Position numbers and translations under genes: made by a program. DNA of 64,000 nucleotides, counting the filler, from Rhizaria sp. SCN 62-66 (Eukaryota), in assembly GCA_001724265.1 (NCBI GenBank). It is 3 parts of 3 records of this genome, joined end to end, with 100 filler letters (N's around TTAATTAATTAA, not from the genome) between each part and the next. Parts side by side here need not be neighbours in the genome. Positions count along the whole stretch, not along the records: positions 23,495 to 46,690 come from MEDY01000432.1; 2 more parts are not named here. One strand, 5' to 3'. How positions within the stretch are numbered: the first letter of the stretch is position 1; each line of letters opens with the position of its first letter. Of the stretch, positions 13,466-61,000 are shown in pieces. The notes under the pieces were generated by a model. The model saw only the letters and a program-made list of their open reading frames with translations, searched no databases and was not told the origin of the DNA.

Positions 13466-16400
13466 ATGAACTACATTTCCTACGGCGCGGCTGGCGAGGC
13501 ACAGGAAGTGTACTACTCGCCCGAGCAGGTGCGCCATGCCACGCAGTCGCTTGCGCACCGCCTCGATGCCCTGCAGCGCACCACGGCCGGCTTCTCCAGC
13601 AACTCCGCCTCTGGCGGGCACAGTGGTGTGTTGGATCTGCTTCCCGCCTCCTCAGGAATCGACTTCACGCTCGCAGCGCGCCACCGCATCATCCAACCCA
13701 TCGCATCGGCCTTGCCTACCCACTACCAGTCCCACGGCACTCTTGCAGGCGCCGACGCAGCTGGTGTGGAGCTCGCGAGCGGCGGGGCGCCCGACGCGAC
13801 GGCGTACGCGTTCTCTGACCCTTTTTCGAGCATCTCGCGGCCGCTGCTACTGGGCTCGCCCGCCGAGCGCCGCCGCCTCGACGGACGCGTCAACGCGCGC
13901 CTCGCCGCCGCAGCCGCAGCCGCGCACGCCCATAGCCACAGTCACATTCACCTTCGCAGCCACAGCAATACCCCATCCGCCCCTCCGACCGTTCCCTCCA
14001 CGCCCGCGACTGCGGCTGCAGCCGCGGCTGCTGCTGAAGACGACGGGACTGAGGCCGCGGTGGCGAGGGCCCGGGGGGCGCTGGCGCGCGCGCGGGCGCG
14101 CACGGAGGCGACCGCCGCCGCCGTGGCCGCTGCAACGACTGTCAATGCCAGTGCGTCCAGTGCGCGCCACAGCGGCGTCAAGAAGGGGAGGCGTGCCAGT
14201 GTGACCGTTGCACCTGCGACAGCACCCACATCAGCATCAGCGTTAGCGTTGGCATCTGCCCCCGGCCACAGCCGTGGACACAGACAGCACGCATGCAGTC
14301 GCAGTCCCACATCCGCCGCCGCTGCCCACAAGAACACCACTGCCACTGCCACTGCTACCGTCCCTGCCAGTGCATCTGCGGCCCAAGCCACGGCGGCCCA
14401 CGCGGCTGCCTCTGGCGGCCTGTCTGCGGCCCACGGCTACCTGCTGTCGAACAGCCGGCGCGCGTTCGGCCAGCCCTACGCCGCGCCCCTGCTCCACGAC
14501 GCCGCGCCCCTGCTCCACGTCAATACCCCCGCCAGCGCCAGCGCCAATGCCTCTGCCCACCCCAGCGCCCGCGGCAACGCGAGCCTTGCACACATCGCGG
14601 GCACTGCGCACGTGGCCGCTCTGGCTGCAGGCGCGAGCGCTGCCGCGCCTGCGGCTGCAACGGTGACCGTGGCCGTGACCGAGGCAGGCGGCTTCTCGGT
14701 GCGGCACGTGCTGGTGCCCACGGTCACCATCGCGCCCAAGCAGCCCGCCGCCGCCAGAGCCTCTGCAGCGAAGCGCGCCACAGCGGTCAGCGACATCGTG
14801 ACGCCGCTCACGGCCACTGCTGCCGCTGCGGGGTCAGGGCTTACGGCCACCAACGGCGGGAGTCAGCTCGCGACTGGCACTGCGACTGGGACTGCCACTG
14901 GCACAGGGGCGACTGCAGCTGCGCCGACCCGAGCCGCAGCTCTCGCGAACGCGACCGCGGCAACGGCGCAGCAGTCAGGTGCAAGATACATCGGCGACGC
15001 TAGCGGTGTTGACGGCGGCGTCTCGGGCGTGGCTGGCGTCGAGTACTCTGCGACCTCGACCTCGACCGCGACGGGACCTCTTTGGTCGCATCCACCGAAG
15101 CCGTCGCGCGCAGCCGCGTACCTCAACGCCCGCGCCGCCGCCGCGCGCGCCGCCGCCACGGCCAGTCTCGCTGCCGCGGCTGTGACGCCCGCGGCCGTGA
15201 CGGCCAGCTCTGTCGGCACCGGTCCCCCCGCCGCCGAGACCGAGGGCAGCGCTGGCGGCGGCGCTGGCGACAACACCGGCGGCGACAGCAGCAGCGGCGG
15301 CGGGGATCACTGCTAGCTCTGTCGCGGGAACCACGTCCGCGGGCTAGACTGTCAGTGCACGTGCCACCGCAGGCACGCGCACGGTCACGCCCACGGTCAC
15401 GGTGGCCACGGTGGTTACAGCGGTCACGGTGGCCACAGGGGCGCGTTGAGTCTGCGTCAGCCGGCGGGCGGGAGCGACCACGCGCTCGCCGAGGCGCGCG
15501 CGCTGCAATCGCACATCGCCTCTCTGGTTGCCGCGCCGCTGCCTGCGGCACCAGCGCACGCGACGACCGACACTGGCGCTGGCTCTGCTGGTACAAGTTT
15601 TGGGTCACCTGCTGCTCACGGCCACGGCCACGGCTCCGGTCACGGTCCTAACAAGCTCTTAGCACACGCGCGCCCACGGCCGCAGTCGCGGTCTCGGTCG
15701 CCGTCCCGGTCGCCACGGTGCGTGCGGTTTGCCGTCTCTGCCCGCGGTCACACCACTGCACCGACCGACACGACTGCTGTTGCTCGCGGTCACGGCCACG
15801 GTCACCCCGGTGACGCCCTAGCTGAGGGCCCGTCCGCGCACGACGACCCAGTCGCCAGCTACTACAACGACGAGTATGCGGCGCTGTACAGCCGGGCCAA
15901 CGTCTCCGTGGCCGACGCCGCAGCCGCAGCCGCCGCGGCCGCGCGGAGCCACCTGCCCCCGCGCCCCGCGGCCGCTGCCGGCGGTGCACCGGGCGGCAAC
16001 AGCAGTCAGCAGCTGCAGCGGCGGTGGCAGCAGCAGCAACAGCAGCGCGGGGGCCCGTTGTCCGCGGCCGTCGCTGCGCAGCGCGGGCGCTAGGTCGCCG
16101 CCGAGGCCGCGGCGGCGGGCGCGGCGGCCGAGGCGCGCACGGCCGCAACGGTGGCCGCGGCGCGCGCGGCGGCGCCTGGGGCCGCTGTCGCCGCAGCGAC
16201 AGCCGCGACTGCAGCCGCGACCGCAGCCGCGACTGCAGACACTGCGGTCACTAACAGCACGCGCGATCGCAGCTCTGCTGATAACGTGGGCACTGCTGGT
16301 GCTGCTGCTGTTAGTCTCCCGTCGCTCCCGTTGCCACTGCAGTCACCGCACCGCCAGCAACAGCAGCAGCAACAACAACTGCAACAACAACAACAGCAAG

Positions 16401-17029
16401 AGCAGCACAAGCTGATGCAGTTGCAGCACGGCATGTGTCTGTCGCCGCGCGAACTTCTGAGGGTGTACCGGCGCCAACAGGGCTACAACAGCTGCAATGG
16501 TAGCAGTAACGAGACTGCAGTGTCAAGCTTGCACGCGTTATCCCCGTCGCGCTCCCAGTTAAAGCTGCTGGCTCACTCGCTGTCGCAGCCTCGTTTGCTG
16601 CATTCACAGTCTCAGTCGTTGTTGCAGTCGCACCGGCTGCCGCCTCAGCACACGCTGTCTCCACTTAAAGGCGCGCAGCGGACACACGCGCAGCCGGGGC
16701 CGCTGCCGGCGTCGCTGCCGTCTCTGCAGCCCGGTACAGCGGCTGCTCACGGTCACTCTCCACACATTGGTCACGGTCATGGTGATGCATCGGCGTCGCT
16801 GCGGCCGCTGGACTCGCGCGCGATGGCTGGACTGGCCTTCCCACCGCGTGCCAATGTTGGTGTTGGCGGTACGTTGAGCGCACGGGGCAGCAATGACTCA
16901 TCTGTGGTCACGTCAGGCTCTGCGGCCCAGGGGAGTGAGACCGATAGGACGGTGCCCGGGGGGCAAAGGGGGGACTTGACGCTTGCGCAGGTTCTTTCCG
17001 CGATGAATCTGAATCGGGTCAAGCGGTAA
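13466..17029 (+). CDS. Low-complexity Ala/His/Gln-rich protein, ~1187 aa, with 2 in-frame TAG codons (15314, 16091)
   Basis: Track ORFs 13466-15316, 15446-16093 and 16151-17029 share one frame. The intervening codons contain no TAA or TGA, and composition is continuous across both TAGs. Stop is TAA. Confidence 0.7.
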
Positions 17030-22825: not shown

Positions 22826-23394
22826 ATGCAACTGCGTTCGACTCTGTTGCTTCTGCTGGCGGCTGCCATCATGGGCAGGTACGTTTCCACTCTTTCTTTG
22901 TCCCGCTACCCCTCCTCTGTCGCCCAGTAATCGCTCCCCCATCCCCAGTCTCTCACCTCGCTCTCGTTGTTCCATACTCACGCCATCTCTTGTTGTACCC
23001 CGATTATCGTTCACGTCACCTCCCTTACAGCCTCGCCATCCAGACCCCCGGCGCGCAGGGCGCGCTCCAGGTGAGCCCCAGCTTCCTGGCGCTGCGCTCC
23101 CGCATCCACGCCCTCGCCGCGGGCCCCGACGGCACCACCACCCCTGTCGTGGACTCCAAGGCCCCTATCGTTGACTCCAAGGCTCCCATCGTTGACTCCA
23201 AGGCCCCCATCGTTGACTCCAAGGCTCCCATCGTTGACTCCAAGGCCCCCATCGTTGACTCCAAGGCTCCCATCGTTGACTCCAAGGCTCCTATCGTTGA
23301 CTCCAAGGCTCCCATCGTTGACTCCAAGGCTCCCATCGTTGACTCCAAGGCTCCCATCGTTGACTCCAAGGCTCCCATCGTTGACTCCAAGGCT
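22826..23394 (+). CDS. Secreted repeat protein, 3'-truncated at contig end; exons 22826-22878 and 23031-23394
   Basis: Signal-peptide-like MQLRSTLLLLLAAAIMGSLA is completed across a GTACGT...CAG intron and continues in frame into (VDSKAPI)n. Confidence 0.75.
23149..23394 (+). repeat. 21-nt coding tandem repeat, about 12 copies, running into the contig end
   Basis: Units of GTTGACTCCAAGGCYCCYATC; variation is confined to third codon positions. Confidence 0.95.
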
Positions 23395-23494
23395 NNNNNN
23401 NNNNNNNNNNNNNNNNNNNNNNNNNNNNNNNNNNNNNNTTAATTAATTAANNNNNNNNNNNNNNNNNNNNNNNNNNNNNNNNNNNNNNNNNNNN
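23395..23494. other. Artificial contig-joining linker
   Basis: N44 + TTAATTAATTAA (stops in all six frames) + N44. Confidence 0.97.
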
Positions 23495-29405: not shown

Positions 29406-31142
29406 ATGTCCTCCCCATTTTACAATGCCTAGTTTCACAAGTCACTTGCGGATTTGATGTCGCTGTCGTCGACCTGCGCGGGAGTCACGAAGCTGTTGTT
29501 CACCCTCTGCGGCGACGACGGCGAGTCAGTCCCCGATTCGGCGGCCTACCTCGAGCCCGAAGTGATTGACTGGCTTGTGCAGTCTTTATATTACTCCCCC
29601 GCGGATGCTGAGCAGGTCAAACGCACGTATATGACGGTTACCCTGCTGGAGACGGCGTTGGGCCAGGCCGTCGACGGGTCCGCGGTGCTGCTCCGCCACT
29701 GCGTGCCTGAGAAGCTAAGCCGCCTGCTGTCGCCGTGGGCCCGCGACGGGCGCAGTGGCGCCGCCAGGACCGCGCTGACGCTTTTGAGCGACGTCGCTTG
29801 CGAGGGCCGCGACGCCGTGGACGAGCTGGTCGCGCGCGGTGTGTTTGCGGACTTGTGCAGCCTCATTGCCGAACTGCATTAGCACACTCCCACTCCCGCT
29901 CGCATTCGCACTGGCACTGGCGTTGGTGCCGCCGATGGCATCGTTGATGCCCAAGTCGACATTGATGTTGATGTCAACCACCACCAGTTGTTGCACATTC
30001 TCGCCCACACCGTGGCTTTCTTTGCACACGTCAGGCCGCCGCTGCCGTACGCCACTGTGGCGCCGCTGGTGCCGCTGCTGGGGCTCGCACTGCGTCGCGA
30101 CCCCACATCCCCGTAGCTCGCGCGCGCACTCTCCGAGCTCCTGCGCGCGCTGTGGCACCTTTTGCGCAATATGGACGAGCCCGGGGCCGCGCTCGCCGCC
30201 GTCGTCGCCGGCGGCGAGGACAGCGTCTTCAACACCGTGGTTTCGCGCCTTGTCGTGAACGTCGATATGAACCCCGAGCTGTCTCCGTCCGCATTCTAGA
30301 TTGTCAAGCTGGTTGCTAATTTCGACGGCGCTGTTGCGAACGATGTGAATAACGAGCGTGATCGCAATAGTCGCCGCGATATGCCCGGCGACGATGCCGA
30401 CGGCGTCGAGCTCGACATCCCCACGCGCGCATTCACGCCCGCAGTGTTGTCGCGGCTCAAGCACATCGCCGGCGCACTGGACCGCTACAACGCGATGCAG
30501 ATGTCCTCGATGCTGTCGCTGCTCTCGGCGCTGCTGACTAAGGGCCCCTTGCTGGCGGTTCGCGTGTTCGAGTCGGGCGTGCTCCAGACTGTGGTCCGGG
30601 GCGCGCCCGTGCCGCTCGGCGACATTGTGGGCGACGACGACGAGAGCGGTTTGTGGTGGACGGCTGCCGAGATGGGATGGCTCTTCTATCGCGCGCTCGT
30701 TGCAAAAGCACCGGCCAACGCGCTTACATCAACTGACGAAGATGACAATAGTACTAAATCTCGTGACCGTGACCGTGCGAAGATGGCAGCGGCGTTGCTT
30801 GACTGCGGCGCGATGCGTTATTGCGTTGAGACACTCTCTGCGGCCGCCGTTGCAACCGAGCCGCCGCCGAACCAGCTGCTGGACCGGATGCTCGAGGCGC
30901 TGCGCGCCCTGATCGCGGCCGGCGACACGAGTCCGGACCCGGCGGTGCGGCGCGACGGCGCGACGCCGCGCAACGCGTTCCTGGCGGTCTTTTTCGAGGC
31001 GGGCGGCCGCACCATGCTGGTGCGACTGGCTCGCAACGAGGCCGTGTGCGCGCACTCGCTGGGGCCGCTGACGGACCTGCAGCGGCTCGTGCACGACATT
31101 GTGGGCAAGGCCGAGTACGATGACGACAGCGTGCGACAGTAA
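29406..31142 (+). CDS. Divergent ARM-repeat (importin-alpha-like) protein, ~578 aa, with 4 in-frame TAG codons (29430, 29880, 30114, 30297)
   Basis: One frame runs from ATG 29406 to TAA 31142 with no TAA or TGA inside. ARM-like segments ALTLLSDVACEGRDAVDELVARGVF and RPPLPYATVAPLVPLL...ELLRALWHL lie on either side of the TAGs. Confidence 0.7.
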
Positions 31143-34127: not shown

Positions 34128-37100
34128 ATGTCTTTTTTAGTTGCAACAGCAGCTCCCAATCCAACGCCCCCACGACGGCTGCTGCTCCTCCTGCTGCTTT
34201 CTCTCCTTTCCTCCTCCTCCATCTGCCTCGCTGCCGCCCCCGACGTCGCCACCGAGCCCGCCACTGCGCCCCCGTCGGCGCGCGCGTCCCCCGCGGCGCC
34301 CTGGTCCCCACCCGCGGACCCCGCGCTCTGGGGCACTGCGCTCGGCCGGCGCCTCGCTCTGCACGCCGCCTCGGCCATCTCGCACAGCGCAGTCTACTCA
34401 TACGCCGACTCGCCGAGCCCGCTGCTGGGACTCGTGGCGCCCGGGCTGCGCACCGCGCGCGCGCGCATCGGGCCCGCGTTCACGGGCTACTTGGACGACA
34501 ATGAGGCGCGACAGGACACCGACCCCGACCCCGACACCGACGCTGACTTTGGCGCTGACGCTGGCAATGGCAATGACTGCGACGTTAATAATGCGTCGCC
34601 GCGGTCGCAGCCGTGCTCCAAGTCGCAATCCCAGTCGCAGAGGCCGCCACTGCCGCCATCCCACACGCGCACGGCGACGCTGTTCCCCAAAAGCACAGGC
34701 GCTGACTCGAGCCCGAGCGTCAGCGCGAGCCCGGACTACACCGCCAGTGACGACATCGACAACGACAACGCCTCCAATGACGGCAGCAACAACAGCAACA
34801 ACCATGACAGTACACTTCCTGCTGCGAGGAGTCCGGGAAGTAATCCTTTTCGTCCGACGCTGAGCCGCCGCGAGCGCCTGGCTTCGTCCCGCGCGCGCGC
34901 GCTGCTGCTGCTGCGGCGCTCCTACGGGGCCTACGCGCGCCACGCGCTGCCGTTCGACGAGCTACGGCCGCTGACGGCATCGCGCGCTAACAATCTGATT
35001 GAGCTGGGCGGACCCGGCCCGCGCCAGTCGGCCGCGGCCGCGTATCCCGGGCTGGCGCTCACGCTGGTTGACGCGCTGTCGACGCTGGCGGTGGCAGGCG
35101 CCTGGGGAGAGGTCTCCACCGCCGCGCGCTGGCTCGACCGCTGGGTTGGCACGGGCGCGGGCGTGTACTGGGGCGGCGACGACGCCAACAGGACCAGGGC
35201 TCTCCGTGTCAGGTCCAAGACCAGCGACCGTGACAGTGTCAATGACGACATCAGTGACAACGCTCAGTATGACGACGATGATGATGGTGATGTTGTTGAC
35301 TATGATGAGGAGGAAGGCTACTGTCTTGATCTCCTGGATGATGCTACTCTCGGTGACAGTCGCAGCGGGCACCGTATCAGTGATGATGAGGCTTCTTTGT
35401 GCGGTTTTGAGGCCTAGATCCGCGCTGCTGAACGCGCAAAGATCGGGAAGTTAAGCCGCCGCGATATGAAGGTAGGCCGCATCTACGCAGCACTCGCAGC
35501 GTCACAGTCCGGCCGCGCCGACAACTCCTCGGTCGACGACCTATCCTCGAAGTTAAGCCGGCTCTCGGGCTACTCCGGCCCGCTGTACAGCGCGGCCGCA
35601 CTCGAGTCCCTGCTGCATACCGTGCCGGCGACGCACGCGGCGACCTTTGCGGCTGCGGCGGAGGCGGCGGCCAAGGACGCCGAGGCTGAGGCTACGGCTG
35701 CCGTCTCGGCTGCAAGTGCGAATGCTAACACTGGCGCTGCCAGTGAGAGTGGAGACACGAAGTGCGGCCAGTACGGCCCCAGCACTCCGCAGTTACAGCC
35801 GCACCCGCAGTCCCGCTCGGGAGCAAAGAGCGGCCGTGACAGCGCCGCCGCCGGCGCCAGCGACGAGGGCGCTAAGGCTGCTGCTGCCGTTGCCGCCGCC
35901 GTCGCCGCCGCTAAGCGTGCCCGCACCCTGGCCACTGCGGCCGCGGCTGACGTTGTGCCTATTGCGGTGCTGGCGCCGGTGACCGTCGCCCGTCGCGCGC
36001 GGCAACAGCAGCAGCGCGAGCAGGTGGTGCCGCTGTCGGAGCGGCGGCGCGCCGCGGAGAAGAAGAAGAAGACTGCTGCGAGCTATTCGGAAAGCGACAT
36101 GAGTGCGATCCCGGTTACCAAGTGGGGCGTTGACGCGCTGTTTACGGCCGGCGCGCACGGCCACTCGTTCTCGCCGCTCTACGACATCCCCACGCATTTG
36201 GACAGGCACAACAAGGACTCTTACACTGTCCACACGCAGTCTCACTCTGCTTCTGTGCCGAACGGCGGCAGTGTTCTATACCGCAACCGCGGCTCGTTCG
36301 ACGTCGACGCGCGCGTGAACGTGTTCGAGGCCAACATCAGGCTGCTCGGCGGCTTAATTTCCGGACACGAGCTCCTCGACCACTGGCAGCGCGAGAACAG
36401 CTTCGTCATCACCAAGCTAGTCGCTACTAAAACGAGGAAGACAAAGACATCTCAGAGCGCGAGTGCAGATGTCGACGACAGTTCGGCTGCGCCGACCGTG
36501 ACCGTGGCCGCGAGCGAGCCCGCTGTGGCGTACGATGGCAGTCTGCTGCGGCTGGCGGGCGACCTGGGCGACCGCCTGCTGCGGACCTTCGACTTGTACC
36601 AGCACCACGCTCGCAACGATACACACCCCACGGGGCCAAACGCCAGTAACAAGGGCGACGCCAAGAGTAGCGAGAGCGCCGGCGCTTTGAGCACCGTCGC
36701 GCTGATCGACAGCGTTGTCACCAGTGTCGGTGACGTCATGCAGCGAAACTACATCAAATCCCTCCTTAGCCGCTTGCGCGCCGAGTCTGCTTCGCTAGCT
36801 AACGCGTCTGCAACCGCCGCAGCTGCGGCTGAGACCTCCGAGGACCAGGCACGGCTGAAGCAACAGCTGCAGCAGCTGCGGCAGTTTACCCCTCCGGCGC
36901 CGCACACCGTGTTCCCTTTCCCCGCGCGCTCTCGCTCCGCGACGGGCACCGTCACGCCGCCTTTATCGCCGCTGCGGCACCAGACACACCCCTCCGCGCT
37001 CCCCGCCACTGCAGCAACGACGGCGACGGCCAAGAGCCAGTCTTCGACTGCATCAGAGGTCACCGCCGAGAAGGAGAAGACCTCTCGCTCTCGCTCTCGC

Positions 37101-40100
37101 TCCCAAAAGTCCCAGTCGCAGTCTGCGCCGGCGCCGCCGTCCCCCTCGTGGCTGCCGTCGGCCTGGGTGTCTCTGCGCCACGGCCGCGGCCCGCGCGAGA
37201 CGCCCGAGACGTGTCTGGCGGGCGCGGGCACGCTCGCGCTTGAGTTCGGCGCGCTGTCGGCGCTCTCTGGCGACGCCACTTACTTAGAGGCCGCCGACGC
37301 CGCCACGCGCCAGATGCTCTCGCTGCGCTCCGCGCTGGGGTTGCTCGGCAACGGCATTGACAAGGCGCGCGGCGCGTGGCAGACCGGCGGCGGCGCCGTG
37401 CTGGCGGGGATCGGCTCCGGCACCGACTCGTTCTACGAGTACCTGCTCAAGGCCTTCGTCGCGTTCGGCGACGCGCGCTACCTGGACATGTTCGAGAGCG
37501 CGTACTCGCCCGCGCTGCAGCACCTGCGGCGTGGGCCCTGGTACGTTGAGGCCGACGCCGCGACTGGCCGCGCGGTCCACTCGCAGTTCAATTCGCTCCA
37601 AGCTTTCTGGCCCGGCATGCAGAGTCTCTACGGCGACATCACCCCCGCTGTGGCCACTGCTGAAGCGTTCTTCGCGCTCTGGCAGCGCTTCGAGTCATTC
37701 CCCGAGCGGTATCTGCTGGACCAGCGGCAGGTGCACGGCAGCGAGCGTTATTACCCGCTGCGGCCCGAGCTGGCCGAGAGCCTGTACCATCTGCACCGCG
37801 CGACGCGCGAGCCGCGCTGGGCGGCCATGGGCGAGGTGCTGCTCGACAGCCTAGAGCGCTGGACGCGCGCTCCCGCGGGGTATGCGTCGCTGCGGGACGC
37901 GCCCGCCAAGGAGCGTGAGGACCAGCAGCCCTCGTACTTCCTCTCCGAGACGTGCAAGTACCTCTACCTGCTCTTCGATGACGCCGCCGCCGCCGCGCCG
38001 CCGCGGGCGCAGGCGCACGGCACGCAGAGCGGCAAGAGACTGCGCGGTAGTGGCTCCGGCGGCTGCGTTATGAGCGCGTCCCATAGGAGCGGTGCTGAGG
38101 TCTCAGAGTGCGATGCTCGTGCCGTAACGAAGGAGGGCGGCGTCACTAGCGTTTCGAGAAAGGCTTCTTGCGCTCGCGCAGAGGCCACTCACGCGAGAAA
38201 TGCCAGCGCTCCGTGGGCCCGCGTGAGCACCCCCGGCGGCCGCGTGACTGGCGCGGCGCTCGCGCACAGCGTCGACTGGCTCTACACGACGGAGGGCCAC
38301 CTGCTCCCGGTCAAGGCGCGGTGGCAGGGCTTCGCGCAGCGCCACGCCGAGAGCCGGCCCGGACTCAACCCCAGCGACGGCGACATCGACGGCGTCTACG
38401 ACAGCGTCGGCGACGGCGAAGGTGACGGTGACTCTGAGGCTGCGACATCTGCTGCAAGTGGGGCTAATCGCCGGAGCACGACGACGACGACGACGACGGT
38501 GGCGCTGGCGCTGGGGCTGACCGAGGCTGGACTGGGGGCGGTTCCCGAGGACCGCTGCCCCTCAGCACTGCTCACGACTGCCACGACGACAACGACGACG
38601 ACAACGACGGCGATGAGTCGGAAAACAAAGGCGGACGATAACACCGCTGCTCTTGTGTCTCGCGATATCTCGAGCGCGAGCTCGACTTCTAGCTCTAGCT
38701 CTAGCTCTCGCTCGCACACGGTCACGGTTCCCTTCGCGACCGAGCGCGCGCACCCGTTCCCGTGGGAAGGCCCGCCCTCGGTCGCGGCCCGCGCGCGCGC
38801 CTCGTCGCTGCGCTGCCCGCTGCCCGCGGCGCTGCTGCCGCCCTCGGTCGGCGCGCGCTCGCTCGAGGCCGTCCACGCCGCGACCGACACGGCTGCGGCA
38901 GACGCGGCCGCGGCGGCGGCGCTTGCGGCCGCGCTCCTCGCCACCATTCCCAGCGGCGGCAGCAGCGGCGGTGCTAGTGGCGGCGGCAACGCGGATAAGG
39001 TCGTTTTGGCCGCCGCTGCGGCCGCCGCGGCCGCCAAAGCGACCGCGCTGGCCGGCATTGCGCACACTCTCCCCCCGAGCGCGGCTGCGAGCGCGAGCGC
39101 GAGCCCGAGTGGCAACGGCCACGCGCTGAGGCACGGCGGGTTTGAGCTGCCTGGCAGCGAGGGCGAGCTCTCGCTGGCCGCGATGCTCTTCTGGTTCCGC
39201 GACCACACCGCGACCACGCTTGCCGCCACAAACACTAGTACTATTATCAGCAACAGCAGCGGCAGCAGCACTGATAACGACGACAGCGGTGCCGTCGTTG
39301 ACCAGCGCAGTGACGAGAACAGCGCGGAGCACAGCAACGCCGACGCCAGCGCTTTGCCCGCGTCTCGTGCGCCGACTGCGTCGCCGTTGCCACTGTCGCC
39401 TGCGCCAGTGATCTGGAACGGCGCAGAGGCCGCTGCAGCCGTTGAGGCAGCGTACTACGCCCTGATCCTGCGCTGCAGCCCTCCCGCGGACCGTGGCAAC
39501 GACAGTGACAGCCGTAGCGTTGTCAGCGCTGGAGCTAAAGCTGCTTCTAGCAAGTCGCCGCTCGCGCAGTCGCCCTCAGCCGCAGCTCCAGCGGCGGCGG
39601 CGGCGCTCAGCCCGGCGCCTCCCGCGGCGCCGGGCCCGCTAACCGAGTGGATGGCGCTGGCGCTGCTGCGCGCGCTGGCGCCTCGGCACGTGCGGCGCGC
39701 GTGGGCGCGCGGGCAGAACCCCAGCCCGGCGCTGCTGCGCAAGCATCAGCAGCTGCAGCAGCCGCAGCAGCCGCATCCGACGCGGGGCAAGAGCCGCCGC
39801 AGCCGCGGTCGCGGGAGCGGTGGCGGTGAGAGCGAGGGTGAGAGCGCGTCAGCTGTCGCGAGGGCGGGCGATATGCGCGATGCTGGTCTCGCGTCTGAGC
39901 TGGAGCTGTACCTCCAGTGTCCGCTCGACAGCTTCCGTGACCACTCGCACGCGAACGGCGCTAGCGCTGCCGAGGACGACAACGCCAAGAGCGGCGCGGC
40001 CGCCGCGCAGCGCAGCCACATCAGCAACGGCGGCCTGCCTCCGCTGCCGCCGCTGCCGGCGACCGCGGTCTCCGCCGTGCGCGCCGCGGCCGCTGAGACG

Positions 40101-43100
40101 GGCTTCATTGCGCCCTTTCCGCAGCGGCAGCAGCTCGCGGTGCGCATCGCCAGCGGCGCCCCCACTCCGCCCGCACCCGCGCCTGCGCCCGCGACTTCGC
40201 CCACGCCCGCGTCTGTGTCTGCGTCTGCGTCTGCTGCGAGCGCGTCGTCGAGCAGCAGCAGCAACAGCAATGTGGTGGCTGACCCCGACGCTGACTCCAG
40301 CTCTGCCGCTGCTGTTACTGTCAGCGCCGCGAGTCCCGATACCAGCGGCGACCTGGGCTACGGCACCACGGGCGGCTCCGTGGTCTCTTTGCTGGACCTG
40401 GGCACCGGCGAGGCGCTGCACGTCGCGGGCGTCAACGACCGGTTCCAGCTGCCACCCGCCGCGAGCATCAACGGCAATGGCAGCGGCGGCGGCGACTTAG
40501 AGTCGCAGTCTCAGTCAAAGCAGAGTGGGGACAACGAAGACGAGAGTAATGGTAGCAACAGTGGCGAGAAGTCTGTCCAGCTGGGCCCCTCTATCCCGCA
40601 CCCCACCATCGTCATCACCGCGGTCACCGTTCCCACGGCCACCGCGCTCGCGGCCGCTAGTTCTAGCTCTAGCTCTACTGCGAGCGATAGTGTGAGTGAC
40701 AGTGCGGTTGCGCCAGTGAGCGCTGCAGAGACTGCTTCGTGGTGCACGGTGCTGGCCACGAGCGCGCACCTGGCGTTCGGCGGCAGTGGGGCGCCCGTCG
40801 CCTCTGCAGCAAGCGCAAACGCCGCTGCCGCAGCGACCACGGTCACAGCCTCGGCGACAGCAACATCTGCTGCTGCTCAAGCGCGCACCACAGCGTCCGC
40901 CGGCGGCTTGACTTTGCGCTACACCCCCGAGGAGGTGAACGCTGCGGCCGCTGTGGCGTCCGCGGCTGCCGCGGCGGCGGCACTGGCGGAGGCTGCTGCG
41001 GAGGCTGCGGAGGCCGCGGCATCGGCGTCCGAGCAGGTTGCTGCGATGGCGATGCTCTCGTATCACGAGGCCCAGGCCGAGGCTGACGCTGAGGCTGAGG
41101 CGGAGGCTGCGGCAGTAGCTTCGACACTGGCAGCGGCAAAGCGAGGTGTTAGCAGCGACACCGAATATGCTAACGTTGTCGACGACAGCGCTGCCGACGC
41201 CGCCGACGCTGCCTACGCCGCCGCGATTGCCGACCGCGCTACCGACGACGACGGCGACGACGACATCGCGACCGAAAGCGAGGCCGTCAGCGGCGAGTGG
41301 GCGATGCGCCGTCTCACGGGGCTCTTCCTCCTCACCGCCGCTGAGCCGCACCCCGCCACGACTGCGGCGGCGACAAAAGCAGCAGCGGCAGCCGCGGCAG
41401 CGGCAGCGGCGGGAGAGGGTGATGACGCCGACTCAGCAGAATCCAGCGGCCCCGGCCCAGCGGCAGCGGGCGCCAGCGCCGTGTGCAGCGTGCGCAAGGT
41501 CCAGGCCGCGGCCGCGCTGTCCGTGGCCGCGGCGCACAGCCGGTCCCAGTGCCCGGTCCCCGCCGCGCTGGCCGCCGCGCTGGCGGCGCCCGCGCCCTCG
41601 GTGGCCGACGCCGCCGCGTCGCTGCTGCGCGGCGGGGGGCTGAGCGTCCCCCTGGACGGCGAGGCGCGCAGCCGGAGCGTGGCGGTGTCGCTGACGCTGC
41701 TGCTGACGACGCTCGAGACGGCGGCGGGCGCGCTTGCGGCGCTGTCGCAATACTCGCGCGCGCAGCTGCAGGCCGCGGTGCCGCAGTCGCAACAGGCCGA
41801 CGCGCACCTGCTCGCGCTCTCGCGCGGCGGGTTGGGGCTCACGGGCGCACAGTCGTTCCTGCTCTCGGCGTACGCGCAGTCGCACTTAAACACGCTCTTG
41901 GATCCTTCTCTGCACTCGCAGTCAGTTGACACGGATACCGCGCTTACTGCCGCCGAATCTGACTCCGGTTCCGACTCTGGCTCCTCCTTTGACTCGGACT
42001 CCGCCGCCTCTGCTTCTGCATCAGCGTCTGCGTCGGTGTCGCTGGCCCGGTCCGGGCTGTCTCGGCTGCTGTCGCTGCACTCGGAGCTGGCCAGACTCGC
42101 CGGCCTCGTCGACCCCACGGTGGCGACCATCACGCTCACCGTCCCGCCCCCCCTGGGTCTGCGCGCCGCGCTCAAGGCGACCGCGGAGAGGGACTCCGCT
42201 GCCGCGACCGCCGCTGCTGCTGTTGACAAGATTCGCGACTCAAGCAATGCTGTGACCGCCACGGCGAGTCCTGCCGCTGATGCCGTCGCCGCTGCTGCTG
42301 CTGCTGCCGCCGCTGCGACCCAGAGCTCCCGCCGCGTGAGTTTGTCCGACCGCGCCCGGCGCGCCAAGGCTGCTGCCGCTGTGGCCGCCGCGTCCGCCTC
42401 AAGCGCCGCCGTGCGCGCTGCTGACGCCGCGGCCGCGGCCACCGAGGCCACCGCCGCGCTCACCGCGGCGCGCGCCGAGTACCAGAGGCGGCTTAAGTTA
42501 GAGCAGAGGCTGGACCCGGCTGTGGCGAGTGCCAGTGCGGGCGATAGCGGCGCCGATGCTGCCGAGAGCGCTAGCGACGAGAGCAGTGAGTCTGGCGAAG
42601 TCGTCGTGCTGAACCGTATCATCAGCACGCTTGACGCTGCTGTCGCTCACGCGCACTCACTCTCACGGCACGACGCTAACAGCGCTGCCACTGCTGCGGC
42701 GAGCTCTGCGAGTGTTCTTGCTTTGTTCCGCGCGCCGCCGCCCCCGCGCGCGCTGCCTGTGCCCGCGACGCGGGCCCCCGCGCCCTTCACGGCTGCGACC
42801 GCGCTGTCGGTTACGCTCCCGCGCTGTCCCGCGCTACGGCTGCCGCTGGTGCCCGCCGCGCTGGGCGCGCCGCTACCGCGCGCAAGCGGGCCCGCGGCCG
42901 CCGTGCTGCGCCGCCGCGGCGCCGCTGCGGCCGCCGTCGCCGCAGCCGCCAACGCTGCCGCTGCGCTCGGTGTGGTGAGTGCTGCCGGTGCGAGTCCTGT
43001 TGTGGGGCCGGCGGAGGCTGCGTTCGCTGTAGCGTCTGCGTCCCCGTCGGCTGAGTATCTGCTGACACCGCGCGCTTTTCGTGCGGGCGGCAAGTACTTA

Positions 43101-45119
43101 GATTGGGTTGCGAAGGGCGCTCCCGATGGCAACTCCGAGGATGGTTGGTGGGTCCGCAACAGTAACTACTGGCGCAGTATCTTTGACACCGCTGACAGCG
43201 CCAGCGCCAGCGATGGTAGCGACAGAGACGATAACAACGACAGGAGTGTTGACGAAGCTCTCTGGGTTACGGCTTCCAAGACGAGCACGAAGACGAAGAG
43301 TAATGGCAAGAGCAAGAGCGACCCCGACTCAAACCTAAACGACGATGCCGCAGAGTCTGACACTGAGCTCTTCTTCGGTGCCCTTAGCGGCCGCATTGTC
43401 GTTGCTTCGCCGCCCTTTGCCTGCACCGACCCGACCTCCGCCGCCGACTCGCGCTCTGACTCAGTTCCAGAGTCCGCACCCGACGCAGAGTCACTGCTGC
43501 CGCCGTGGCAGGACGCCGTCGTGGTGGCGCTGCGCGGAAACTGCCCCTTCACTCAAAAGGCCCGCATCGCGGCCAAGGCCGGTGCGCGCGCTCTCGTGCT
43601 TATTAATCTGCCTCCTTCCACGCTCGGCACGAGCTCGAACGCGAACAGTGGGGCTGGCGGTGCTGTTAGCGGCGCGAACGCTGCTGAGGCCATGCTTGCC
43701 GTGCTCGCCGCCGCGGCCGCAGCCGCAGCACCGGCGACCGCGGGCGCGGCCGACACGCCGAACGCGATGAAGGCCGCTCTGGCCACGTCCGCCGTGACCG
43801 CGGGCGCGCGGTGGGAGCCGATGGCGGGCCGGCGCGGCGCGTTCCAGGGCTCCGGGCTGCAGTCGCACGCTCCGGGCGCCAGCCGCGAGCCCGCCGTTGC
43901 GGTCGCCATGACCGGGCTTGACGAGGGCGCCGCGCTGCTGCGCTGTCTCGTCACCTCGGCGCCGCACCCCGACTCGGACGCTAGCGCTAAGAGTGGGTCT
44001 GCGCACAGCGACGGCGCTAAGAGTGCTGCTTCCGCCGCTGCGGTTGCTGCCAGCAACACTGAACAAGCTGCGACGCCCGCTTCTGAAGCCGCGCGCGCAC
44101 GACTACTCGCGCTCACTGCTGCGGCTGCGCTTGCGATGGACGAGTCGCTGTCTTACACCGCTCCGCTGCGGGCTCGCGCGCGCTCTCTTTTCGCACTTGC
44201 GGCCTCTGCAGGACCCGCTGCGCTGCCGCTGAGGCCCGCCGCTGAGCTTCTTGACGGCGCGCGCTCTCATTACGCACTCACTCACTCTGCGCACGCTCAC
44301 GGTTACGGTAACTCGGCAGCGCAGGCATTTGTCGAGGTGACCGTGACCACGGCGCCGACGGCCGCCGCGGCTTCGCTGCGCGTGAGCCGCCGCAAGGCCG
44401 CCGCGCGCGTCGCCGCCGCCGCTGTAACGGCTGCTGCCGCGACAGCTTCTGTCTCGGCCGCGGCCGCGGCTGCGGAGGGCGGTGTCGCAGCAGTGGCGGT
44501 CGCACTGCGGCCGGCAGCTGCGACTGCCGCTGCGGCCGTTGGTGGCGTCGTTTTCCCAGCACCGGCGTCGGCAGCGTTTGCTCCACAGCTTGCCGCGAGC
44601 GAGGTCGCTGCGTTCATGCGAACGTCCTACAGCAGCGGCAGCAGCAGCGACAGTGTCAGTGACGCAAAGACTGCGAAGACGAAGAACACGGCTTCTTCTG
44701 GCTCCAGCACTAGCGCTAGCAACCGCGCAGACAAACCCTCTCGTACCGGCGTGAGCGCGAGTGTTGACGCAGCGCTCGCGTGGGGGCTCCTGGTCTCCGC
44801 ATCGCCCGCTTCGCTCACTGCCAGTGCCACCTCGCCTATCACCACAGAGAGCAACGCGCGCGCTCCAAAGTTGACTGCACACTCTTATCTCAAGCCCGCG
44901 TCAGTGCTGCTGCCGTCGGAGACGCAGAGTGCCGCTGCCGCTGCGTCTGCTGCTGCGGCTGTTTGGGCCAGCGGCAGCGAGGGCGAGCGGCGCGCACGTG
45001 CTCTGACGCACTCAGCTGCGGCAGGCGCGACTGAGGCCTTTGTGGCCACAAGTAGCGATGACGTGGCTCTTGCAGTGACATTCACGGATCGCGGGCTTAT
45101 GCAAGTCTCGCTGCTCTAA
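34128..45119 (+). CDS. EDEM3-like GH47 alpha-1,2-mannosidase with PA domain, ~3663 aa, one in-frame TAG (35415)
   Basis: N-terminal signal-like hydrophobic stretch. GH47 motifs before the TAG: YARHALPFDELRPLT, LTLVDALSTLAV. After it: VNVFEANIRLLGGLISGH, TCLAGAGTLALEFG, GIGSGTDSFYEYLLK, YPLRPELAES, SYFLSETCKYLYLLF, TTEGH. PA domain motif RGNCPFTQKARIAAKAGARALVLIN. Stop is TAA. Confidence 0.88.
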
Positions 45120-46690: not shown

Positions 46691-46790
46691 NNNNNNNNNN
46701 NNNNNNNNNNNNNNNNNNNNNNNNNNNNNNNNNNTTAATTAATTAANNNNNNNNNNNNNNNNNNNNNNNNNNNNNNNNNNNNNNNNNNNN
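46691..46790. other. Artificial contig-joining linker
   Basis: Same N44-TTAATTAATTAA-N44 structure as the first linker. Confidence 0.97.
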
Positions 46791-46980
46791 GCTTCATCAT
46801 CGAGGAGCTCAAAAATGACATTTTGTCAACTTCTACCAGCACAACCAGAAGTTCATTGCTAAGGCAGCTGCAGGGGAGGATATTTTCAATGAGTACAGTC
46901 GGTCGCTGCACAAGCACTTGCAGCTGGTGTCAGCGGCAATTGACAAAGCCAAGGCAAAGCAGGCAGAAAACAGTAAGTAA
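46791..46980 (+). pseudogene. Possible 3' coding fragment with an apparent frameshift
   Basis: FIIEELKNDI lies in one frame and VNFYQHNQKFIAKAAAGEDIFNEYSRSLHKHLQLVSAAIDKAKAKQAENSK-TAA (46825-46980) in another, meeting at a T4 run. No family recognised. Confidence 0.25.
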
Positions 46981-47565
46981 AGACTACCACGTACTAATCG
47001 AGTTTTTTTAAGGCCGATAATTGATAATCAAATATATAATTCACATATTCATGTAGTCTAGCAAATTTCATCAATAAATATATATGTATCAATCCAATTG
47101 TACTACAAAATCAATTTCCACCGCAAATTTGCTTGGTCAACTACGGATATTTTAGCCACAGCTACGGATATTTTTGCCCGCAGTAGTAGTACCTTGTTGC
47201 GCGTCTTGAGATGTTACAATCAGCAATGATGAATGGCTGTCACTTCTGCTGTCACATATTGATACGTTGTACATATTAATATATGTACTATTAATATTAA
47301 AATACTAGTACGTACGAGTACTAGTAGAGGACTAAAAGCGGTACTGTACTAAGTACACTAAAAGTAGTAGTATTTACAAAAAGTGTAGAGCTCCGTAACA
47401 CGACATGCAAATTCAGAAAGCAACAAACAATGACTTAATTGAAGTGCAGGAGTTTGATGAGGGATGGGTGAGTGGGTGGGTGGGGAGGCAAAAGTAAATT
47501 TGCTTTGCAGAGCGCAGCTGCGGAAAGCGGAAAAATAAGTAAGACAGGGACGCACAGAGCCGAGC

Positions 47566-47574
47566 AAAAAAAAA
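47566..47574 (-). terminator. RNA polymerase III oligo-T terminator
   Basis: T9 on the minus strand immediately follows the tRNA discriminator base. Confidence 0.8.
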
Positions 47575-47647
47575 TTCCCACTACGGGACTTGAACCCGTG
47601 TCTCAGCAGTGAGAGTGCCGTATACTAACCACCTATACTAAATGGGA
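47575..47647 (-). tRNA. tRNA-Glu(CTC), intronless, no encoded CCA
   Basis: Acceptor stem TCCCATT/AGTGGGA, anticodon arm CGGCA-CTCTCAC-TGCTG, T arm ACGGG-TTCAAGT-CCCGT, and a D loop with TGG. Confidence 0.95.
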
Positions 47648-49026
47648 GAACACGATCGTTGCTGTGTACAACGCAAAAAAAACTTTGATATAGTAGAAGT
47701 AAGAGATATCACAACAGCACATGTTAGTACATCGGAATTGGGTGCTTAGATTTGAAAAAATCAATTAGTCGGATAAGTAATGCTTTGCTGTATATCGCAT
47801 ATCCTAGTAAGTAATATGAAAAACATTACAAGACTTACTCAGTACTCAGTATTAATTCAATCAAAAATTTGCATGGGACCGACCGTGCGTTACCACTGCG
47901 TGTTGACGAGGTCGACGGCGCAGTCCTGAAGGACGTCAGCAACGTCGTCAAGGGCATGTCGGCTGACAACCTTCGAGGAACACACATCAAACTCCAAAAA
48001 GACTGTGTCCAGCAGAGGGATGTACACGAACTTTCTGACTATGCGACACTACGGATCTGAGCAGGCGTTTATCTGAAATAGGAGGACAAATCAGAGTCCG
48101 TACGCACGCATAAACTGTTGTTATGTTACTCTACCAACCGTTGTGTGTTCTTGTCATTGCACAACAAGACCAGACAGGATAAAAAAACAGCACTCATTGG
48201 GTTTATTATTATACTGATTGGATCAATATCACATATCAGTCAATTGTTATTCGACTCATCTTCCAAGAAAAAGGTATACTAGTATACGAGTATGGTTACG
48301 GATGAAAAACATATTAATCAATCGAGGACAGAGCACATGCAAGATATTGCAATAGTACGAATACACTGGGAGTACGTACTTAAAAAACAACAACCCTATA
48401 GTTTAAAATGGAAATGTCGTGTTTTTTGTTCTGCTCAGCACCACTTTTGAGTTGACCAGTGACTGGTGACAAGAAAGTAGGCGAACAAGATGGATGAAGT
48501 TATTAGAACAACAACAATTAAACACAAACACACACAATATGCTTAAATGATAAGCGGAAAACTTTTAACACATAAACAAAAGAGTTGAAAACATCTGGCT
48601 TAAAGGAGGCAACGGTCAGTTGAAACTGGGAAAAACATATTTTCTGATAATAAGTTGCGGATGCATGAAATAAGAACTTGAAAAATGTCGGTGACAATTG
48701 CAGCAATAGCAAAAACACACATGACAAATTTATGATTATATCCAAGCATACATATTGACACAAAAGCACATAGAAAAAAAATAACTACTTGTACAACATA
48801 CAAACACACTACTCACAATACTTAGCACATCCATACACAAACCCGAAATAATCATATTCGGAACACAAATCGTATTACATGAACTCGTAAACAAAAAACA
48901 TTGCAGAACAATTCTGCAATGTACAGGCACACAACAATAATATTTCAAAAAATTATGGTATGGAATCTTCGGAATTCACAAAGATTCCAAACTCTTTCTT
49001 AAACTCAATACTCTAAATAGTGAAGC

Positions 49027-58000: not shown

Positions 58001-61000
58001 TTTAGAGGCAACGAAATTGACGGAAGCAGATAGTTTCCGGCAGCAAGCTCCGCGTGTAAATAAACAGGGTCACTGTTCGTGACTGAGCAGGAGACATATA
58101 TATCCTTTTGCGCGTCGCCGACTGCATACGTGAGTTGCGCAGTGTAAGCAAATGTCGCATTGCCTGACTCAGAGTAGGTTGTAAACCCACATAAACCGTT
58201 TGTCTTTGTAAAAGTAACGTGAATAACGGTCAGCGCCAATACAGAGGGAATAACCCGCACACGTACTCGCGTTACGTTTGTTGCTGGCACTCGCAGAACG
58301 TATGGGGTTGGTAACTCAGCGGCGCCTGAGGGCACCGCAATAGTTTCAAATTTATCCCGTGATAATACATCTGTGATTTCTCGGCTTGCGCCCACAATGT
58401 TCGCAGGAACAAAAAAGTCCATGCCAGTTAAGCCCCACACAGGCATCGGACCAAACACTTCCCCTGCGTAAGCTGCGTTCGTAATAGACAGAATAGAGCC
58501 GACATTATGCGTGCGGCGACATACCATACGTGCGTAAAGCGGTTCTGTGAGTGACTTTTGTTTGAACACTGGCTCACGCGTGTAGAGCGACGCGCCGTCG
58601 TTAAGCAGGAACACGCAGTCGCCAGGAGTTGTGATTTGCGTAATAGGCACCGACTGCAACAATTTAGGCGTTGGCACAAACTCTCCAGTGACAATGTATG
58701 TCTCACGCACAACAAAGCTGAGGTATGACGTCGTTGTCTTGTTGTTGACTGTCAGCCGCAGTTCACCCTTAGTTTGCAGCCTACTAGACTCTAAGCGGTC
58801 GTAGTACACATGAGACTCCTCAGTGAACACGGCGATAATGCGTGGTGGATCAGACGCGGGATGTAGACAAGTAATCAAAAAGAGGATCTCAGAGGTGCTT
58901 GCTGCAAGAATTAAGTCTTTTGCGAGTGTATCAGCTGCATTTGCTGACGAAGATTTAAAGACGCAATCTGCCGACGGGTTTGTAAAACTAAGCTGTAATA
59001 CACCGGTATCGGTAAGTGGGGGCTGAAAAGTAAGCGCCATGGGCACCGTAACAGCGCGGGGAAATGAAACAGTCTTAGTACCATCAGTCAAGTCAAGCGT
59101 ACTTGCAGCAGTCGTGTCTGAGGCCGGCAGCGCAGCCGTCAGTGTAATGCGACCGGTAATACGCACTTGAAGCGCCGTCCACTAAGCAATAACAATACCC
59201 GTCGCGTCGTCGGTGATGCGCGTGGCAAATTGCTCAGAGTACCGCATGACGGTACAGACTACGGTGAGGAGAATAGTCCCAGACTCAGTGTCTTGAGGCA
59301 TCACCGTTGCATTAACACTCGTAGCATTTGTGTTGCCGTTAAAGTAGCATGGTGCGTTGTTAAGCAAGTACAAGGAAACAGTCATCTGGTTTGCGCGACT
59401 AATAGGAAGAACCCACTCCAGTGTAAGTAAAAGCGGCAAGGTATCAACAAAGTATTCGTGAGTGTCAATTTCACTTAGTGGCGTTACTCCGAGTGCGTTT
59501 GGAGCACGCGCTGCGTCGTACACGGCGGCCTTTGGCGTGAAGAGGATTTTAATTACATTTGCATGGTGTGATAGCCGCGCGGGATAGATATAGGAGTCAC
59601 CAACGCGCGTCAGCGTGAATTCAATGTTCATGCTCAGTGCAGCCGCTGCAGCACTGCAGACTGCAAGCACGGCATGACGTTGTTTGTTGGTCGAGATAAG
59701 ATTGACGCGCTCGGTTGTTTGCTAAAACAGAACACCCGTAGCGATTAACGCGCGGTACTCATTATCATTCTGAATGTGCAACAGCTTGGGCAAACTTGCA
59801 ACAGACGCAAACGCACACGCGTCGCCACCAGCCGAGTGCCTGTAGTTATTGGTTGTGTAGCGCTCAACGCGGACTTCGGTGTCAAACTCGATGTAGAAAG
59901 GCGTATATATAGGAAGAGTTGTCGGTGTTACAATTTCCGTGGGCCTTATTGTAAGCATGCGTACGGTAGAACGCAACCATGCTGTAATATAGTTTGTCGT
60001 AATGACATCGTATGAGCCGTCATTACCTGGATATGTTACCATAAGTGCAATGTTGTCTGTTGGTGCTACACTCTCGTAGCAGTTAATGGCGATCGTCGCC
60101 AAAGATGTCAGTTGCACTGTTAGTGCGCGCTGACGAGTTTCTGTGCTACTAGAGGAAACCATCAGAGAGCAAGGGACACCCAGAGGAAGACCGTTGCGCA
60201 ACAGCTCCAGCTATACTGCGGAACGAGTCAAAAATGCAGGCTGTGCAATTATAGCTAAGTCAACTGGTCGAGAGTCTGCACCAATCTCGAACTCGAGTGC
60301 ATATGGCATATTGGGCCGCACAAACACCGTGCCAACAATGGGACGTACCGCCATGGAAGTGCCCACAAAACCTTGATCGACGGGAATATCCATGTTGATT
60401 GTAACACCAGGACTATAAGGCACAGAGCAACGCATCCGCCCAACAATAATGCCATTGTCAACAATGCGGCTAAGGTCATCCGGGAGGGAGATTGCACCCT
60501 TTAACTTTGTTGTGGGACCACCACCAGTGACAGCATCATAGAAGCGACAAGTGCCACTGGCTGTCGAGAAAGAAAGAGTGTACGAGGTGTCCTCAGTCAT
60601 CGGCACGTTAAAACGCAAGATAATATCCGTATCAGCACCAGCAGGGTAGGACTCGGGCTCTGTGTTGACGACAGCGCCAACACGCACTGTCGCCGTTATA
60701 AAATACGTTGGTGAGACGCGCACTGGCTCATTTAACAGATTTGGAAGACCTGCAGCATAGCCACCATCAAGCGTGCCGACCCAGGGCGTAAGTTCCACAA
60801 CAATAGGGTTGATAAACGTTGTCGCGGCGGAGCAACTAAGCATAAACGTTGTAGAGACGCCTGTGCGACTCGCGATGGAGACAACAGCTGCATCGCCACT
60901 CCCAACAACACAGGGTGCAGGACGTCCATCAAAGAGCCTCACACGCACGCGGAAGACCTGCGACTTACTAATCTTGGTAGCGTCTTGCAACACAAGTGGA

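Follow-up and report, generated by a model that had tools for sequence, protein, structure and literature searches.

Four in-frame TAG codons in an armadillo-repeat gene and the probable use of UAG as a sense codon in a eukaryotic genome

Four TAG triplets interrupt an otherwise open reading frame in the assembly of the eukaryote Rhizaria sp. SCN 62-66 (GCA_001724265.1), and the question raised by this locus is whether UAG is here a stop codon found in a dying gene or a codon that is translated. The locus lies at positions 29406-31142, on the plus strand, of a stretch of 64,000 nucleotides (nt) that was analysed as a whole and is hereafter called the window; it sits on the middle one of the three contigs joined in it and encodes an armadillo (ARM)-repeat protein. 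A sequence-only reading had described an importin-alpha-like gene with four in-frame TAGs and no frameshift, and had considered this pattern unlikely for a decaying pseudogene. Two things can be observed directly, namely one conserved frame that runs across all the TAGs of the gene and a pattern of TAG use that extends over the whole window. Both are probably to be explained by a UAG-only stop-to-sense code, in which UAG would be decoded as an amino acid genome-wide and UAA and UGA would be the terminators; UAG not being a terminator in this eukaryote, the four TAGs of the ARM-repeat gene would be translated.

The coding sequence (CDS) is formed by 578 codons in a single frame, from the ATG at 29406 to the TAA at 31140-31142, and the translation of 29406-31142 shows no in-frame TAA or TGA. 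The TAGs, all on the plus strand, are located at codon 9 (29430..29432, in the context YNA-FHK), codon 159 (29880..29882, ELH-HTP), codon 237 (30114..30116, TSP-LAR) and codon 298 (30297..30299, SAF-IVK), in agreement with the number and contexts previously read from the sequence. The peptide RPPLPYATVAPLVPLL, reported within 29883-30296, is also present (residues 199-214), and the absence of this segment from the predicted open reading frames (ORFs) is reproduced, as only 30345..31142 is listed in this frame with translation table 11 and a minimum of 150 amino acids. In 300-nt windows the GC content peaks at codon position 3 (0.68-0.85) and reaches its minimum at position 2 (0.41-0.52), and the periodicity of GC at third positions (GC3) is uninterrupted over the whole gene, including all four TAGs.

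Homologues were searched exhaustively with HMMER among 1.84 billion representative proteins, the query being the ARM-repeat protein with the TAGs read through; 25 matches were obtained at E <= 1e-3, 18 of which at <= 1e-10 and six at <= 1e-30. Three of the 25 are 100%-identical pieces of the query itself (residues 18-158, 256-297 and 326-578) and are the product of standard-code gene calling on this gene, and the non-self matches show 30-48% identity across the matched stretches. Thirteen of the 22 non-self matches were aligned, the remaining nine being short or limited to the C-terminus; in these 13 homologues the similarity extends to either side of each TAG, and every TAG corresponds to a single alignment column. 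The N-terminus MSSPFYNA-TAG-FHKSLADL lines up with those of the only three homologues extending that far, and the ATG at 29406 is therefore the start. A family hidden Markov model (HMM), built from the 13 homologues with the query left out, recognizes the segments between the TAGs separately and in order (residues 10-158, E = 6e-25; 160-236, E = 1e-12; 238-297, E = 7e-8; 299-578, E = 1.5e-65), the best conserved part being the segment that follows all four TAGs (207 bits); in addition, a single HMM domain at residues 192-310 spans both TAG237 and TAG298. Judged by this conservation, the locus is a real gene, and it would be an intact intron-less gene for an armadillo-repeat scaffold of a small, lineage-restricted family. 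The family is in fact small, with members from organisms of varied composition.

Word-indexed homologue searches with the ARM-repeat protein gave no match at near lengths and only three self fragments at shorter lengths, with only two self fragments when the family profile was used, and a scan of genome contigs with the ARM-repeat protein found no relative among 52 pattern matches. Another contig scan, with one of the homologues as query, gave a single 28-residue match in a Paracoccus scaffold, which was regarded as spurious. In four homologues the sequence starts with M at the column of residue 54, where full-length members have V; this shared start suggests that the gene caller chose GTG starts downstream of an in-frame stop or of an exon boundary, and relatives of the ARM-repeat gene with the same code or with an intron are possible.

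The alignment also bears on the possibility that the TAGs fall in small in-frame introns or are sequencing or assembly artefacts, an explanation that we regard as scarcely credible. Spliceosomal introns do exist in this DNA (two GT..AG introns in ALG3 and at least one in the superoxide dismutase (SOD) gene), and a query-specific insertion follows TAG159; however, the residues flanking TAG9, TAG237 and TAG298 are aligned gap-free to the homologues, and the two measured introns have a GC content of 0.40 and 0.29 whereas that of the CDS is at least 0.45 in every 60-nt window and 0.46-0.72 in those centred on the TAGs. Introns over all four TAGs, the circumstance that the sequence-only reading had named as fatal to its proposal, are thus not found, given the gap-free flanks and the lack of any intron-like GC content. 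Errors are unlikely as the source of the TAGs, since fragments whose ends coincide exactly with TAG159 and TAG298 have been recorded from four and seven contigs, respectively, and the ten in-frame TAG sites of the window, described below, have no common motif.

The main evidence is the TAG pattern of the whole window, which is stronger than the fact that the interruptions of the ARM-repeat gene are all TAG. In 14 gene models, for a total of 16,530 codons, 10 TAG, 0 TAA and 0 TGA triplets are found in frame, and the other two frames of the same DNA contain 593 TGA, 204 TAA and 175 TAG. The ten TAGs are distributed in four genes of about 16, with all three contigs represented. Besides the four of the ARM-repeat gene, one is codon 430 of a GH47/PA gene, in its first insert (35415..35417, plus strand), two belong to a low-complexity gene at 13466-17029 (15314..15316 and 16091..16093, plus strand), and three are codons 1124, 1287 and 1467 of a giant membrane-protein gene (60211..60213, 59722..59724 and 59182..59184, minus strand). 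The similarity of the GH47 catalytic domain to a solved mannosidase extends to either side of the TAG at 35415, the N-terminal stretch taken alone being weak but collinear; the homology therefore continues across in-frame UAG in the GH47 gene as in the ARM-repeat gene, which is what a UAG-only code would produce. The ORFs of 4851 (giant gene) and 3663 (GH47 gene) codons are open apart from their TAGs, and no frameshift is present in the TAG-bearing frames of the window. If nonsense mutations occurred at random, the probability that the eight TAGs of three genes are all TAG would be about 0.009.

The same code would leave no UAG terminators, and the 16 gene ends that could be placed, a small sample, comprise eight TAA, eight TGA and no TAG, an outcome with a probability of 0.028-0.003 if TAG accounted for 20-30% of terminators. 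Coding-like ORFs that end in TAG are limited to antisense frames of known genes and to the ARM-repeat gene's own segment. Explicit gene models were used for these counts in place of a codon log-odds classifier looking for coding sequence on both sides of a stop; the off-frame 99th percentile of the latter overlapped its in-frame median, and it was dropped.

Several points weigh against the translation of UAG. TAG is about 15 times rarer in frame than positional base composition allows (10 observed, 153 expected); no tRNA with anticodon CUA is encoded in the window, whose only tRNA is Glu(CUC), nor is there an eRF1 gene in it; the gene ends counted are only 16; no close relative of the ARM-repeat gene is found in the searched libraries; the placing of its TAGs outside helices, considered below, is taken from a model that carries X at these positions; and the UAG residue is not readable from this gene, whose four TAG columns are all variable. 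Moreover, the argument that four nonsense mutations would hardly all be TAG turns out to be weak: random single-base nonsense changes in the ARM-repeat gene give TAG 64.8% of the time, with a probability of 0.18 for four out of four in this GC3-rich gene. Finally, a single gene accounts for four of the ten TAGs, and it belongs to a family with several members, in which a dead copy would a priori be plausible.

These last two points are also arguments for a dead paralogue, that is, for the ARM-repeat gene being a recent pseudogene in a standard-code genome, with nonsense mutations as its TAGs. The family has at least 13 members, and the GC3 of this gene is among the lowest of the window. As already noted from the sequence, its TAG usage is the densest of the window (6.9 per 1000 codons as against <= 1.7 in the other 14 gene models), four TAGs in 578 codons corresponding to about ten times the mean rate of the window (Poisson P(>=4) = 0.0005). 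However, random substitutions in this gene are nonsense in 1.9-2.4% of cases, so that four nonsense changes imply about 170-210 substitutions, and decay would be expected to bring 3-14 frameshifting indels at the assumed indel:substitution ratios of 0.03-0.1. None is seen, with P(0) from 0.03 down to 7e-7, and neither TAA nor TGA accompanies the TAGs. Furthermore, the segment beyond all four TAGs is the best conserved one, the TAGs avoid helices, three other genes have TAG-only interruptions, including the 4851-codon ORF and the split GH47 domain, and none of the 16 gene ends is TAG. The view that a decaying pseudogene is improbable is therefore upheld: on the single frame, the lack of frameshifts and the window-wide TAG pattern, it is very unlikely.

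The way in which TAG is used bears on how complete its reassignment would be. In-frame TAG has a frequency of 0.6 per 1000 codons, and the four genes that carry it, two of which are also very long, have the four lowest GC3 values among 15 gene models, most genes of the window having a GC3 of 0.74-0.95. In the AlphaFold2 model with X at the TAG positions, all four TAG residues of the ARM-repeat protein are non-helical and located at helix ends (coil fraction 0.365, P = 0.018): residue 9 is in coil just ahead of helix 11-18, residue 159 comes shortly after helix 146-157, residue 237 is in coil ahead of helix 239-254, and residue 298 falls between helices 293-296 and 300-304. A pyrimidine follows the in-frame TAG (position +4) in seven of ten cases as compared with two of 16 for real terminators (Fisher P = 0.0085), an excess that is borderline (P = 0.053) against the 61% of purines expected at codon position 1.

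These features could be accounted for by an ambiguous or leaky UAG, a partial stop read through by near-cognate or suppressor tRNAs and representing an intermediate stage, not a finished reassignment; UAG would persist only where the gene is weakly expressed, the position tolerant and the context for termination weak. The 15-fold under-representation of TAG, its confinement to the four genes of lowest GC3 out of 15, the pyrimidines at +4 and the loop position of the four TAGs in the ARM-repeat gene are all in keeping with it, but the absence of TAG from the 16 gene ends speaks for UAG having been abandoned as a terminator. Moreover, no structure is common to the 100 nt that follow the ten TAGs (z from -3.36 to +1.79, with two of ten below -2), and the ten sites share neither a common motif nor one of the TAG-CARYYA type. 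A leaky UAG is thus unlikely, although less so than a dead paralogue.

The 100 nt after TAG9 (29433-29532) and after TAG298 (30300-30399) are more stable than their shuffled versions (z = -2.05 and -3.36, respectively). These two stable folds, not shared by the other eight sites, may be due to chance or may represent local hairpins that favour readthrough.

Under genome-wide decoding of UAG as an amino acid, the triplet would be a sense codon of infrequent use, tolerated for the most part where codon bias is weak and where the residue falls in a loop. As proposed for other UAG-only codes, it would be decoded by a tRNA with anticodon CUA, and the recognition of UAG by eRF1 would be weakened, an eRF1 change being reported for Iotanema spirale. 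A narrower proposal, which we put forward only tentatively and hold to be rather doubtful, is that of a young, undescribed UAG-only reassignment at an intermediate stage in a GC-rich, intron-poor eukaryote. UAG would already be gone from gene ends and yet be rare in sense use and limited to weak-bias genes, loops and sites with a pyrimidine at +4, because eRF1 and the new tRNA(CUA) would still compete for it.

As regards the residue, the ARM-repeat gene had been indicated as the best place to identify it; this expectation fails, since the four homologue columns are variable and the residue is unreadable from them. At codon 9 the three sequences that cover the column have S, L and S; at codon 159 the 12 sequences have E, A, G, S, G, Q, G, A, D, R, G and T; at codon 237 the 12 sequences have M, T, R, H, E, D, G, G, D, A, R and N; and at codon 298 R is found in 9/13, with L in two, D in one and G in one. 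The HMM emission log-odds summed over the four columns favour R (3.1 bits), K (2.0), Q (1.9), H (1.5), E (1.4), N (1.1) and S (0.8), and disfavour W (-1.8), L (-4.2) and F (-4.6), the polar candidates one base away from TAG being Q, K, E and S. The UAG residue would accordingly be polar, with Gln, Glu and Lys as the most plausible candidates and Gln favoured by precedent; Leu appears unlikely on these columns, and Ser may be retained as a candidate (+0.8 bits, with S in two of three sequences at codon 9). The other six TAGs belong to an insert, to low-complexity sequence, or to a region for which neither homologues nor internal repeats could be detected; in particular, when the giant protein was searched for internal repeats at its three TAGs, no self-match was significant, the best having E = 0.003 and 22% identity.

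The same columns allow restorative mRNA editing to be evaluated, in which genomic TAG stops are edited in the transcript, for example by A-to-I conversion of UAG to UGG (Trp). Trp occurs in none of the 40 homologue cells of the four TAG columns and scores -1.8 bits as compared with +1.9 for Gln, and editing gives no account of the absence of TAG from gene ends. The gene content, with a giant protein containing Sushi, TIG and ephrin-receptor-like repeats and a plant- or cyanobacterial-type Fe-SOD, is unlike that generally known for filamentous ascomycetes. The TAG-only interruptions of the window do resemble a TAG-specific system such as the premature-stop editing of sexual-stage genes in Fusarium and Neurospora (PMC10776026; PMC4817773). 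In F. graminearum, however, 71 premature-stop-edited genes have been described (PMC10776026), to be compared with TAG in four of about 16 genes here. The likeness to the A-to-I editing of Sordariomycetes consists of TAG-only in-frame stops in genes that are otherwise intact, and the differences concern the columns without Trp, the frequency, the non-fungal-like genes and the lack of TAG gene ends. Editing is therefore highly improbable, somewhat more so than a dead paralogue. Each of the dead paralogue, editing, and introns or errors is contradicted by the results.

Nuclear reassignments of UAG only are few, and they demonstrate that the decoding of UAG can be separated from that of UAA. They include Iotanema spirale (Gln), an insect-dwelling rhizarian (Leu), Scotinosphaera (Ser), Protocruzia and some phyllopharyngean ciliates (PMC11687900; PMC5304391). 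The closest pattern is that of I. spirale, in which 204 in-frame UAGs in 126 genes are described as "occasional", termination relies on UAA and UGA and never on UAG, with gene ends in a TAA:TGA ratio of 104:15 (PMC5304391); its relatives examined so far use the standard code (PMC9161772). The window shares with I. spirale the occasional in-frame UAG, never used as terminator, and the retention of both UAA and UGA; in contrast, the window has a lower TAG frequency (0.6 per 1000 codons) and gene ends of 8:8 and not 104:15, and nothing ties this organism to fornicates. In the rhizarian exLh, UAG specifies Leu and 384 UAGs are reported in 71 genes, being rarest in ribosomal-protein genes (PMC5304391). 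As in exLh and in Scotinosphaera, only UAG would be reassigned here and UAA is still a stop (PMC5304391; PMC11687900), and the avoidance of UAG in strongly biased genes recalls that in the ribosomal-protein genes of exLh; unlike in exLh, TAG is far sparser in the window and Leu is disfavoured (-4.2 bits vs +1.9 for Gln). The Ser of Scotinosphaera would still be a candidate at +0.8 bits. Amoebophrya sp. ex Karlodinium veneficum, for which contextual translation of all three stops is reported in about half of the gene models (PMC12005148; PMC6394959), is similar in that in-frame stops occur at low frequency, but only TAG appears to be read here and the GC3 of 0.74-0.95 in most genes differs from its A/U-biased third positions.

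In the literature search no paper was found on a UAG-only code in a GC-rich, intron-poor eukaryote, which does not make the code unpublished. A further case in which UAG is rare and avoided in the strongly biased genes of a GC-rich genome would offer a view of the capture of a stop codon. Moreover, standard-code annotation cuts the ARM-repeat gene into three recorded fragments and would split both of its giant neighbours too, so that the public protein sets of the organism are probably wrong for a sizeable share of its genes.

The product of the ARM-repeat gene was characterized at the levels of sequence, family profile and fold. The Pfam search found no family in the protein, IBB and Arm_3 included, and a sequence comparison of the protein alone with solved structures gave nothing at E <= 10. 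With the family profile, designed armadillo-repeat proteins are matched with E down to 1e-30 and natural importin-alpha with E = 7e-14 to 6e-11 over profile positions 22-227; Pfam Arm is detected in five of the 14 aligned family sequences, and IBB is not among the nine Pfam families listed for the 14 members at E <= 1. Modelling with the TAGs read as X, as the sequence-only reading had suggested, supports the proposed fold: with a 14-row alignment, AlphaFold2 predicts an all-helical solenoid (mean pLDDT 82.3, pTM 0.80) whose best Foldseek matches in the PDB are the ARM domains of importin-alpha from rice, yeast and human (E = 7e-8, 11-15% identity, TM 0.49-0.53 by query and 0.62-0.68 by target). 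In importin-alpha, arrays of Trp and Asn on the third helices bind nuclear localisation signals; by eye only, the family consensus has ALWTLGNIA in one repeat and ALR-LVGNVA in a different one, where the ARM-repeat protein has TALTLLSDVA and SAF-TAG-IVKLVANF.

The resemblance to importin-alpha thus holds for the superhelix of about ten tandem ARM repeats, which is found in the model, in the fold matches and in the family profile (7e-14), and does not extend to membership, as neither an N-terminal IBB domain nor sequence-level similarity, by Pfam Arm or Arm_3 or by direct match, is found in the protein. The C-terminal half of the family (profile positions 221-434) is family-specific, unlike the ARM domain of importin-alpha. 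For these reasons, the protein has an importin-alpha-like fold but is not an importin-alpha, and its role would most likely be that of a protein-binding ARM scaffold. In the Protein Atlas, the C-terminal table-11 ORF led only to generic ARM/HEAT-like clusters, and a neighbouring protein to nothing.

The DNA is eukaryotic and gene-dense, with GC-rich coding and AT-rich intergenic sequence. The three contigs occupy positions 1-23394, 23495-46690 (MEDY01000432.1) and 46791-64000, and are separated by linkers at 23395-23494 and 46691-46790, each formed by 44 N, TTAATTAATTAA and another 44 N; the central element places stops in all six frames. Since the contigs are joined artificially by these N linkers, features are not to be read across 23395-23494 or 46691-46790.

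On the plus strand of the first contig, the low-complexity gene at 13466-17029 has a frame that is open for 1188 codons, up to the TAA at 17027. The Fe-SOD gene, on the minus strand at 11991-12563 and extending upstream to about 12900, contains at least one intron, which is AT-rich and falls inside the conserved FHHGKHH motif, and its product has no N-terminal extension ahead of the conserved domain; its solved-structure sequence matches include, among the best, what we take from the PDB codes to be cyanobacterial and plant Fe-SODs. The window also encodes ALG3, whose two AT-rich GT..AG introns measure 163 and 130 nt (GC 0.40 and 0.29, respectively), a DEAD/SPB4-type helicase, COG6 and DcpS. 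The GH47/PA gene, which encodes an EDEM-like mannosidase (34128-45119, plus strand, 3663 codons), reaches its length through long Ala/Ser-rich low-complexity inserts, by which its catalytic domain is divided into at least three pieces.

The giant membrane-protein gene (63582-49027, minus strand, 4851 codons) encodes Sushi, TIG and ephrin-receptor-like cysteine repeats followed, by eye, by an apparent multi-pass membrane region, an architecture presumably reminiscent of the cysteine repeat modular proteins of alveolates. It lies on the third contig, where the only RNA gene of the window, a tRNA-Glu with anticodon CUC, is also found (47575-47647, minus strand). This contig has a GC content of about 0.44-0.53 as compared with 0.58-0.76, and a weak GC3 bias (0.49 in the giant gene); despite the low GC, its interruptions are likewise TAG only and one of its gene ends is TGA, and it is probably from the same organism in another codon-usage regime. 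At the end of the first contig, a 21-nt tandem unit is repeated 11.8 times with a 96% match at 23147-23394, reaching the contig end and encoding a repeat of seven residues in an open frame.

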